Origin: Podospora anserina
Taxonomy: Eukaryota
NCBI GenBank assembly: GCA_017654855.1
Contig: CM030332.1
Location: 7,378,001-7,442,000 of the forward strand
Length of the DNA: 64,000 nucleotides
Direction of reading: 5' to 3'
Below are positions 2,880 through 5,975 of the stretch, in pieces (positions within the stretch are counted from its first letter, which is position 1; every line of letters starts with the position of its first letter). The translations under genes and the position numbers were made by a program. The notes beneath the pieces were generated by a model. The model did no database searches, was not told the DNA's origin, and saw nothing but the letters and a program-made list of their open reading frames with translations.

Positions 2880-4037
2880 CTACAACTTCCCCCTGTCTCC
2901 ACCCCTATTTATTTCTTAGTCCCCTATTTCTCCTGTTTCAAAACATTTCGAAAAAACACTCACGCCTTCCAGTTCTTCGCAAAGAAGTCCAACACCGTCT
3001 TATATCCCCTGATATACTCCTCCTTCACCCTCGCATCGCTCAGATCACTCCTCGCCGCCATCCACCCGTGGATCTGGTCCTTGAACGTCTCGACATGCTT
3101 CGCCACCTTGAGCTTCTCCTCAAACTCCTTGACCTTGTCCTCCGGCTCCTCCTTGGACGCAAGCAAAATAAGCGGGATCTTGATCCCCTCCGCCTCCTTG
3201 GGGTCAACCATAGCAGGATGGCACTCTGCGCCGACAACAAAAGGATTCTGATCCCCAGACGTCACGAGAGACACAACCTTCCCGCCCCAGCAGAACTATT
3301 CTGTAGTCAGCTTCACGCCCGCGGCGGTTTGAACGAGAAAGGAGACTCACACCCAAAATAGCCCACTCCTGCACCCCCGTCTTCTCCTTCAGAGCCTTGA
3401 CATACTCAGGGAGCTTGCCGGCCACGCCGGGAGGCGGGTTCCTGCCGAAGAAGGCGCCAAGGTTCTTTTGCTTCTCTTCCGTGTTGGGGGGATACCACTC
3501 GATGGGGCAGGGCTCGCCTTTGAACCAGTCGGGGATGACGACTTTGTATTCTTCCGAGGAAGAAGTGGCGAGGATGTCGGCGCCTTGGAGGGTTTGCTCA
3601 AAGTAGCCGAAGATGTCGTAGATGACGAGGATGCCCTTTTTGGCGGTGGAGGGGCCTGTTACGTCTGGGGGTGTGTTAGTCTTGCGTAAAATGGATAATG
3701 GACCCTAATAACATGTCTGAAAAAGGGGCAGCATACAAGTCTTGAAGCCATCAATCTCCTCGTAGCTACCCTTGGCAGAGTAACCCTTGGAGACAACAGG
3801 AGGGATGTTGCAGCAGGCCTGGTTGTGGCCGTGGGAGGCTTGCATGGTGGACATCTTGGCGGCTTGCTGTTTTACAGAGAAAAATGTTGTGTGATTCAAC
3901 GAGCCAGTTCTAGAGGCACACGCAGGAGGAGGTTCGGATTTGAAGATCTGGGGGTTGCCGGACAAACGATAAGCATAAGAGCCAGGAGGACGGGAGAGCC
4001 GGGCGGCTGCGAGACGGAGCTGGCTTCCTGAAGGCAT
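2880..4037 (-). CDS. Dienelactone hydrolase family (alpha/beta hydrolase, AIM2-like), multi-exon, with alternative N- and C-termini
   Basis: Exons (minus strand): 3854 (or upstream in-frame ATG 4037)-3737, 3664-3351, 3295-2960 (TGA). Alternatively 3295-2964 plus 2904-2880 (TAG). Introns are GTATGC..CAG and GTGAGT..TAG. The spliced protein has ACC near the N-terminus, IYDIFG, the nucleophile motif GFCWGG and the catalytic-His motif QIHGW. Confidence 0.9.
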
Positions 4038-4075
4038 ACCTTTAAATGAGAAGCTTCTAGGTTCGGGGTATCTTG

Positions 4076-4091: not shown

Positions 4092-4189
4092 ACAATGATG
4101 GCTGCTGGCTAGTGTAGGGGCTTCGAGATCGGTAATGTTGCCTGTCTATCTTAGGGCAGAAGTGCGGGGTAGCTTCCCACTGTTGCCGC

Positions 4190-4665
4190 CAGATTAATTA
4201 AATAAGGCCCACTATTGAGGAATGATATTGTAGCAGTGAGACTTAAGGCACTAGGTTAGGCATTACTAAACCACCTAACTACTTTTTTCTGTACAACACT
4301 GAAATTAATATAATTAACTACCTTAATATTAAATCTAATTATTTATAATTAGAGCATTATTCCTTAATTTTAAAGTTATTACTATTATATTAAATCCATA
4401 ATTATTGTAATTTCACTGTAGCCCCAATACACCTAGTAGTAAGCTATAGATATTATATGAGCTATTTCCGCTGCACTACACACTGTAAGTGCATTGGGCC
4501 TTTAGGTTTATATATAGGACATAGCTTTCAATAATAATTATTTCGAAATAAATAGTACTAAAATATTTAGATACAAATATTTTAAAAAAAAAAAAGCTAT
4601 TTTTGGGTAATATTTAGATATAAACCGTAGCATAGTTTTAGATCTTTTCCTTATTATTTGTAGAT
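4190..4665. mobile_element. AT-rich, TpA-rich island; probable RIP-degraded repeat or solo-LTR relic
   Basis: GC content drops abruptly, TA dinucleotides are abundant and there are no ORFs. TGTAG (4229) and CTACA (4480) could be LTR ends, but no target-site duplication is visible. Confidence 0.55.
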
Positions 4666-5360: not shown

Positions 5361-5975
5361 TCACTGTTCGCCAATCTTATGGCCGGACCGCTTCATGTCC
5401 GCCACCGCCTTCTTCACCACGGCAACCTCAGCCCCGAATCGAAGAAACTTCTCGATATCAATCAGGTCGATCCATTTTGGCACCAGGTTCTCTCCCTCAT
5501 CCTGCGTGTCCTTATCGGGCGTCGAGGTGGAGTCACATGTCGCTGCCCAGTAGTACACCGTCTTGAAGGATGGTGACTTGGACTGAGGATCGGGGTAGGA
5601 GCATGTCCCGATGAACTCCCTGCTAACGTGGTCCCAAAGAATCTCTGGCTTCTTGTAGCCCTTGCCCTTGTTGGGGAGGGCCCTTTTCGGCAGTTGGGCT
5701 CTCGTGGGAACCTTGAGTGCCAAAGGCGTAGCCGTAAACCCGGTCTCCTCGTGCGTCTCCCTGAGGGCTGTGTCGAACCAGTGCTCTTCAACGTTCCTTC
5801 TGCCTTTCGGGAGTTGATGGATCTGAAGGCGGTTGTTCCAGATGATGAGGACCTTCGCTCTCCCAGGGTCGATTGTTACAGTGCCGCAGGATATTCCAAC
5901 CTCGTGCGCCGGACTAAACGTCATGCTCATGTCAATCTGGTCCATATCCAACTGCTCATCACCCTGGCGAGCCAT
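5361..5975 (-). CDS. Nudix hydrolase
   Basis: Intronless 204-aa ORF with the Nudix box GRRNVEEHWFDTALRETHEETG (GX5EX7REUXEEXG), preceded by LPK. Confidence 0.88.
   Translation of the reverse strand: MARQGDEQLDMDQIDMSMTFSPAHEVGISCGTVTIDPGRAKVLIIWNNRLQIHQLPKGRRNVEEHWFDTALRETHEETGFTATPLALKVPTRAQLPKRALPNKGKGYKKPEILWDHVSREFIGTCSYPDPQSKSPSFKTVYYWAATCDSTSTPDKDTQDEGENLVPKWIDLIDIEKFLRFGAEVAVVKKAVADMKRSGHKIGEQ

Follow-up and report, generated by a model that had tools for sequence, protein, structure and literature searches.

In fungi, the closest described precedents for a hidden peroxisomal isoform are GAPDH and PGK, whose cryptic peroxisomal targeting signal of type 1 (PTS1) is exposed by alternative splicing or by stop-codon read-through (Freitag, Ast & Bolker 2012, as cited in PMC4207609, PMC9549241 and PMC3713238). 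The gene Pa_1_20080 (PODANS_1_20080) of Podospora anserina, on the minus strand of a 64,000-nucleotide stretch of contig CM030332.1 (assembly GCA_017654855.1, positions 7,378,001 to 7,442,000; hereafter the window, whose first letter is position 1), appears to carry a device of the same kind. Both cases would pair a major cytosolic form with a minor PTS1-bearing form that arises after the normal stop codon has been bypassed at the RNA level, and both layouts are conserved across fungi. The present gene differs in that its product is an alpha/beta hydrolase of unknown substrate, not a glycolytic enzyme. Within its own family the 5' splice site takes in the stop codon, and splicing adds an exon of just 3-13 codons.

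Alternative splicing also underlies the dual localisation of 6-phosphogluconate dehydrogenase in Candida albicans (Strijbis et al. 2012, as cited in PMC4207609 and PMC9549241). The likeness lies in splicing that decides, in a fungus, between a cytosolic and a peroxisomal enzyme. The signal exposed there is reportedly an N-terminal PTS2 and not a C-terminal PTS1. A further parallel is MpaH' of the mycophenolic acid pathway, a filamentous-ascomycete hydrolase described as needing a C-terminal GKL for peroxisomal localisation (bioRxiv 10.1101/524025). Its GKL is constitutive and not made by splicing. No peroxisomal isoform of the AIM2-like or dienelactone hydrolase family was found in the open-access literature, judged partly by the title and abstract of the matches listed, and no mention of Pa_1_20080 was found in main texts of the same literature. 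The 2022 review PMC9549241 contains neither 'hydrolase' nor 'Aim2'. The kind of mechanism is known; the case in this hydrolase family appears to be new.

The element in question lies at the 3' end of the gene. Exon 3 ends AAG GCG TGA, and the TGA occupies positions 2-4 of a possible third intron that begins in phase 2 of the last codon. The features concerned are:

2958..2963, minus strand: 5' splice donor GTGAGT of optional intron 3, containing the stop TGA of the short isoform (2962-2960), read from the sequence
2905..2963, minus strand: optional intron 3 (59 nt, GTGAGT...ACTAAG...TAG), kept in RNA contigs and apparently counted as an intron in the reference coding sequence
2915..2920, minus strand: putative branch-like ACTAAG (CTAAG against the CTRAC of introns 1 and 2), read from the sequence
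2883..2904, minus strand: micro-exon of one base finishing the Ala codon plus seven codons, GGDRGKL, identical to the tail of the P. comata protein P0124
2880..2882, minus strand: stop TAG of the spliced isoform, read from the sequence, with 2882 equal to the published transcript end site (TES) plus 42 (Lelandais Table S1, PMC9801653)

If the intron is kept, the product has 255 aa and ends ...FFAKNWKA. The stop of this short isoform sits within the sequence that the spliced isoform loses (2963-2905). Removal of the intron joins GC-G GGT GGA GAC AGG GGG AAG TTG TAG, that is, ...NWKAGGDRGKL*, and lengthens the protein to 262 aa. A reading made earlier from the sequence alone had proposed this arrangement. 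Its placement of the stop within a consensus donor is correct to the base (2963-2958 on the minus strand), and the 59-nt length, the non-consensus ACTAAG and the TAG acceptor at 2905 were all found as described. The spliced product that it had predicted is borne out by translation and by identity with P0124. A second in-frame acceptor had been missed: a CAG ending at 2893 defines a 71-nt intron and yields ...NWKAGKL*. The downstream micro-exon is in frame from either acceptor and ends in -GGDRGKL* or -GKL*. With the donor taken as given, the 260 nt downstream were shuffled 5000 times, and an in-frame tail of the form [SACPG][KRH][LMI] appeared in 3.0-4.8% of cases; for donor and in-frame tail together, the chance is about 0.1%.

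Public annotation already contains the forms that such a device would produce. The 90% protein cluster holds three kinds of model, namely 255 aa (P. anserina CAP68143.1), 262 aa (VBB73586.1 of the sibling species P. comata, which is P0124 and ends NWKAGGDRGKL) and 313-316 aa with an N-terminal extension (e.g., CDN29925.1). The 255-, 262- and 316-aa deposits are probably three real isoforms and not annotation errors. For P. anserina itself, Lelandais et al. 2022 (PMC9801653) list a single Pa_1_20080 transcript with its transcription start site (TSS) at 7159488 and its TES at 7158195, and their Table S1 gives untranslated regions (UTRs) of 279 (5') and 42 (3'). After conversion (window position equals chromosome coordinate minus 7155355), these sizes put the start of the coding sequence (CDS) on the ATG at 3854 and have it end at 2882, where the TAG of the micro-exon begins. 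As a control, the neighbouring Pa_1_20090 ends by the identical convention on the first base of its own stop, 5363. Because the UTR arithmetic ends the CDS at 2882, the P. anserina reference CDS appears to include the third intron. The spliced model is already in the annotation, without comment. Table S2 of that article places Pa_1_20080 under alternative 5' splice site (A5SS) and intron retention (IR), the latter defined there as intron coverage above 0.1 of CDS coverage for annotated introns. The RNA contigs described next lack introns 1 and 2 altogether, which makes intron 3 the likely source of the IR entry.

The stretch occurs in 24 runs from 15 studies, none of them recorded as RNA; 18 of the runs contain 0.82-0.85 of the sampled words and were guessed to be RNA. 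Four runs from four studies (X1, X5, X6 and X12) were aligned, each contributing one contig. Introns 3296-3350 and 3665-3736 are removed exactly as modelled in 4/4 contigs; therefore, the contigs represent spliced RNA. The third intron (2905-2963) runs uninterrupted through all four, with no joint reported, and the retained form predominates in these P. anserina assemblies. This form, ...NWKA*, had been put forward as the one without a PTS1, and it is the one assembled in every contig. For the proposed comparison of junction with retention evidence, these variant-dropping contigs give retention in all four and a junction in none. Evidence for the spliced form in this species comes from the annotation and from the IR entry. 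Contig assemblies drop minor variants and are unstranded, and the convergent neighbour overlaps the 3' end; therefore, the lack of a spliced contig says little, and no ratio of the forms can be derived. Coverage from about 2840 down to 2648 probably reflects the neighbour's transcript merged with that of the hydrolase gene and was left out as a measure of the 3' UTR. At window position 2820, the single X12 contig (depth 145) reads G where the window has A, probably a strain difference.

The strongest evidence for the predicted cryptic PTS1 layout, and in our view the decisive one, comes from the orthologues. Scanning metagenome contigs with the family alignment gave 80 loci, of which 75 were usable and fell into 63 clusters at 90% nucleotide identity. 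Five loci were dropped, one for lack of a C-terminal match (L014), one because it runs off the contig end (L046) and three because the frame enters non-homologous sequence (L059, L061 and L062). The stop lies inside GT[AG][AG]GT in 24/63 clusters, against the 2.1% (about 1.3 clusters) that the loci's own base composition would lead one to expect (binomial p about 4e-24), and inside the looser GTRRG in 37/63. The orthologous donors share the phase-2 position in the last codon with that of Podospora.

A PTS1 followed by a stop codon was then sought within 260 nt downstream in the 55 clusters with at least 150 nt of downstream sequence. The strict pattern [SAC][KRH][LM] plus stop was present in 20/55 (shuffle mean 1.85, maximum 7 in 300 shuffles), and a broader pattern in 30/55 (shuffle mean 4.4). 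The reverse strand gave 0 strict and 4 broader matches, and a far-downstream region (400-640 nt) gave 2 strict and 4 broader matches in 34. Requiring an AG acceptor that places a PTS1-like tail in frame left 30 of the 63 clusters (shuffle mean 1.76, maximum 6 in 200 shuffles). With a YAG acceptor the count was 22/63 against a shuffle mean of 0.99, and the two wrong-frame controls for the in-frame tail gave 11 and 7. The 30 candidate terminal introns have a median length of 69 nt (range 40-186) and would add 5-13 residues. Their tripeptides are AKL (7), SKL (6), SKM, SKI and PKI (3 each), AKI and PKL (2 each), and PRL, ARL, SRL and PKM (once each). The linker before the tripeptide is short and rich in G, S, A and P. 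Variable linkers in front of three final residues that do not vary are what a PTS1 would be expected to show.

Spliced tails also occur directly in other species. Two loci with uninterrupted open reading frames (ORFs) end ...FFHKHM-EGGAKL (L008) and ...FGKYL-KGNASTGAKI (L011). A protein search seeded with L008 found 6-8-residue extensions ending in AKL, SKL or SKI in 9 of the 120 Dothideomycete and Chaetothyriales proteins listed. Four of the nine come from NCBI (Byssothecium circinans, Curvularia kusanoi, Lasiodiplodia theobromae and Elsinoe australis). The remaining five lie on contigs of transcript size, and one of these five represents a cluster with 88 members. Of the listed proteins, 111 stop at the first stop codon or have a different tail. 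The terminal intron is kept in many short contigs that lack internal introns (e.g., L005, L019, L030, L033 and L052), and retention is therefore the common state in other species too. Retained forms (such as L005, L019, L030 and L033) and spliced forms (L008 and L011) of the orthologues were seen on different contigs. L029 has ...SSDAAKL-stop 36-70 nt past a stop within GTAAGT, though not in the frame that the usual phase-2 donor sets; use of a different donor or an indel in the contig would account for this.

Each cluster was assigned the class of its nearest named protein, with class membership verified for six species and the following result:

Dothideomycete-like: 27 clusters, 18 with a PTS1 exon, 1 already spliced
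Leotiomycete-like: 11 clusters, 5 with a PTS1 exon, 1 already spliced
Eurotiomycete-like: 13 clusters, 4 with a PTS1 exon (all nearest Chaetothyriales or Aspergillus), 0 already spliced
Sordariomycete-like: 12 clusters, 3 with a PTS1 exon, 0 already spliced

On this distribution the layout appears to be inherited and present in Dothideomycetes, Leotiomycetes, Eurotiomycetes (Chaetothyriales) and some Sordariomycetes, which are four classes of Pezizomycotina. L035 combines GTGAGT with a tail ending ...SAARL. The alignment of orthologous 3' ends suggested by the sequence-only reading accordingly recovers the donor stop and the PTS1 exon across four classes, with sparse representation in the class of Podospora and none in its nearest loci. 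The same reading had assigned the balance of the two isoforms to a weak branch point, and this part finds no support: 21/30 candidate orthologous introns have CTRAY near the acceptor, and orthologous terminal introns are kept in mRNA-like contigs all the same. A CTAAG branch as the cause of retention is not supported as a general feature of the family.

Whether GKL can serve as a signal bears directly on the Podospora copy. It is, as had been recognised, a non-canonical variant with G at -3, outside the strict pattern and compatible with the broader one. The tripeptide is experimentally functional in another protein, MpaH': in Aspergillus, GFP-MpaH' co-localises with RFP-SKL and ceases to do so once GKL is deleted, as described in bioRxiv 10.1101/524025. 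In human EHHADH, the change from SKL to GKL reduced the apparent PEX5 affinity (association constant, Ka) from 6.444 to 1.424, so that about 22% was kept, according to values given in PMC6770196. An AlphaFold2 model of P0124 (262 aa) has a mean predicted local distance difference test score (pLDDT) of 89.3 and a predicted template modelling score (pTM) of 0.88. Its last helix spans residues 232-252, and residues 260-262 have pLDDT below 50. Given the low pLDDT beyond the last helix, the C-terminal tail would be free; the C-terminus of P0124 is therefore predicted to be exposed and flexible.

These elements can be joined into a putative mechanism. Intron 3 would be removed inefficiently, with a donor that overlaps the stop (G-TGA-GT). 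When the intron is kept, the ribosome would halt at the TGA in the donor and release the 255-aa ...NWKA form without a targeting signal. Splicing out the 59-nt (or 71-nt) intron would take the stop with it, and a seven-codon (or three-codon) micro-exon would add -GGDRGKL (or -GKL). This non-canonical PTS1, on a flexible tail, may then be recognised by Pex5 and bring a small share of the enzyme into peroxisomes. We regard it as probable, with real room for doubt, that Pa_1_20080 encodes such a conserved cryptic PTS1 and yields a minor peroxisomal isoform through inefficient splicing of intron 3.

That doubt has several sources, all of which weigh against the proposal. No contig in any of the four aligned runs contains a 2964^2904 or a 2964^2892 junction. 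The listing in Table S2 of PMC9801653 names no intron for IR or A5SS, and an optional intron exists at the 5' end as well. Beyond its G at -3, the Podospora tail has Asp at -5. The PTS1 exon is found in just 3/12 Sordariomycete-like clusters, and donor and exon alike are missing from the three loci nearest Podospora (L001, L002 and L025). L013 has the NWK and a TAA inside GTAAGT, with no PTS1 exon found. Among the 120 Sordariomycete-centred matches listed, the sole PTS1 tail is that of Zalerion maritima P0059 (...NWGQSPASRL). A protein search with the tail region found no PTS1-like end in 50 further Sordariomycete or Eurotiales proteins, no match covering the tail (at most 88% of 60 residues). 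The donor statistics are measured against background composition and not against stop contexts of other fungal genes, and the orthologue clusters lack phylogenetic independence. Frequent loss of the device in Podospora's class lowers confidence in a working Podospora copy.

The loss pattern feeds an alternative that we consider unlikely though deserving of serious attention, in which the Podospora copy is a decaying relic: an ancestral working PTS1 would have been weakened (S or A to G at -3), splicing would be rare and the region would now be 3' UTR. The retained form alone in the four contigs, the patchiness among Sordariomycete-like loci with loss in the nearest ones, the non-consensus CTAAG branch motif and the lowered PEX5 affinity with G at -3 in the one measured case (PMC6770196) are all in keeping with decay. 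A relic, however, sits poorly with a perfect GTGAGT donor and with two in-frame acceptors that both give a GKL end. GKL is also reported as sufficient for import of MpaH' (bioRxiv 10.1101/524025), the curated model uses the splice, and the low joint chance of donor and in-frame tail given above applies here as well. At the other extreme, intron 3 may be constitutive, with the 262-aa protein as the sole real product and retained RNA as unprocessed or nuclear material. Annotation is on its side, the reference model and the deposited P. comata protein both being spliced, but this explanation is improbable: all four runs remove introns 1 and 2 yet contain intron 3, the gene is listed under intron retention (Table S2, PMC9801653), the terminal intron is still present in most orthologous intron-free contigs, and the majority of transcript-derived proteins go no further than the first stop.

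Pure coincidence would require a TGA that happens to fall in GTGAGT, a random xKL-stop, a splice that is a gene-predictor artefact and an unrelated pattern in the orthologues. Many windows were scanned, many tripeptides are acceptable and the RNA contigs lack a junction; even so, we judge this very improbable in view of the family-wide enrichment against all four controls, the match in phase and position with the orthologues and the spliced tails in other species. Stop-codon read-through favours the motif UGA CU. The context here is TGA GTG, which does not fit that motif, and read-through of the TGA as the source of a targeted isoform is hardly credible, although read-through-derived PTS1s are known in fungi (PMC4207609). 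A read-through-derived PTS1 can be ruled out, as the zero frame past the TGA encodes VFFRNVLKQEK* without a PTS1.

The identity and remaining anatomy of the gene are well defined. Pa_1_20080 was named through an exact-sequence protein cluster, and its exon 3 is 100% identical to the P. anserina protein P0001 (316-aa form). The Pfam DLH profile PF01738 matches residues 37-250 of P0124 with 57.5 bits against a cutoff of 21. The catalytic triad of dienelactone hydrolases includes a nucleophilic Cys in G-x-C-x-G and a conserved His. In this family, GFCWGG with C146, its Cys within G-x-C-x-G, and H220 are invariant in 49 sequences. Some sources label the orthologues 'AIM2 family protein C30D10.14', and the product is, on these sequence features, a predicted AIM2-like enzyme of the dienelactone hydrolase family. 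What it has in common with the AIM2 family (S. cerevisiae AIM2 and S. pombe C30D10.14) is the names of its orthologues and the Pfam DLH domain. The other parts of the gene are:

3948..4039, minus strand: optional intron of 92 nt in the 5' region (GTATGC...CAG), with the 316-aa form's upstream in-frame ATG (4037-4035) inside the donor, from RNA contigs
3737..3854, minus strand: coding exon 1, whose ATG at 3854 starts the 255- and 262-aa forms
3665..3736, minus strand: constitutive intron 1 (72 nt, GTATGC..ACTAAC..CAG), skipped in 4/4 RNA contigs
3351..3664, minus strand: coding exon 2, from sequence and RNA contigs
3296..3350, minus strand: constitutive intron 2 (55 nt, GTGAGT..CTGAC..TAG), skipped in 4/4 RNA contigs
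2964..3295, minus strand: coding exon 3 (FCWGG...NWK plus GC of the Ala codon), with the joint 3295/3351 in 4/4 RNA contigs

The 5' end of the gene displays a second optional intron. The match of the X12 contig stops at 3949 and resumes with window 4042-4071, which corresponds to a spliced form (two ambiguous bases resolve to a GT-AG intron at 4039-3948). The X5 contig is colinear past 4000 and retains the intron. The TSS published in PMC9801653, at about window position 4133, lies upstream of it. Because the upstream ATG lies in the donor, splicing at the 5' end removes the N-terminal extension, a parallel to the loss of the stop by splicing at the 3' end. In the extension (3855-4037, minus strand), R, S and T abound and acidic residues are almost absent. 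Comparable extensions occur in 34/248 family proteins (P0001, P0002, P0004 and P0019 among them), S/T-rich and with a median of 62 aa, 8 R+K and 1 D+E, and also in many loci (L005, L008, L011 and L030 among them). Their composition suggests a presequence and a mitochondrial isoform made from the upstream AUG. The overlap of start codon and donor was looked for in the orthologues and is not conserved there. In the intron-free L008 (55-984) and L011 (10-897), the N-terminal extension stands on one ORF together with the spliced PTS1 tail, and such a molecule would carry two putative, competing address signals.

A wider proposal follows these lines, and we put it forward tentatively, inclined to doubt it more than to accept it: one AIM2-like hydrolase gene may serve three destinations, with localisation set wholly by the choice of terminal intron to be kept, and the arrangement would be an old one that spans at least four classes of Pezizomycotina. 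The upstream AUG, embedded in the 5' donor in Podospora, would add the presequence-like extension and direct the enzyme probably to mitochondria. The internal AUG would give the cytosolic enzyme, and the stop in the donor of the last intron would hide the PTS1 micro-exon of the peroxisomal form.

The surroundings of the gene offer some further observations. A large convergent plus-strand gene (ORF 3-2708) has its 3' end facing that of the hydrolase gene, and RNA contigs merge the two. A CAG/CTG repeat at 2600-2660 encodes poly-Gln near the C-terminus of this neighbour, and 2600-2647 was skipped as repeat in the placement of RNA contigs. Directly upstream of the promoter region of the hydrolase gene, from about 4210-4400 and beyond, lies a very AT-rich block that by eye looks like the product of repeat-induced point mutation (RIP). 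Farther on, a minus-strand ORF at 5361-5975 contains GRRNVEEHWFDTALRETHEETGF, which we take to be a Nudix-box-like motif. By the coordinates in PMC9801653, this ORF is Pa_1_20090, with a 3' UTR of 325 nt.

Cryptic peroxisomal isoforms usually escape proteomics and gene predictors that read no further than the first stop. A very compact device for producing them would be a stop codon with a second role within a splice donor, and its genomic signature (GTRAGT with a stop in it, followed by a short intron and a micro-exon ending in xKL-stop) may serve in the search for more cases. Podospora pex mutants exist, and the present case is directly testable. Should the proposed mechanism hold, a widely conserved alpha/beta hydrolase of unknown substrate would join the fungal peroxisome. 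Should the wider proposal of three destinations also hold, the family would represent a component, so far unrecognised, that the mitochondria and the peroxisomes of filamentous fungi have in common.

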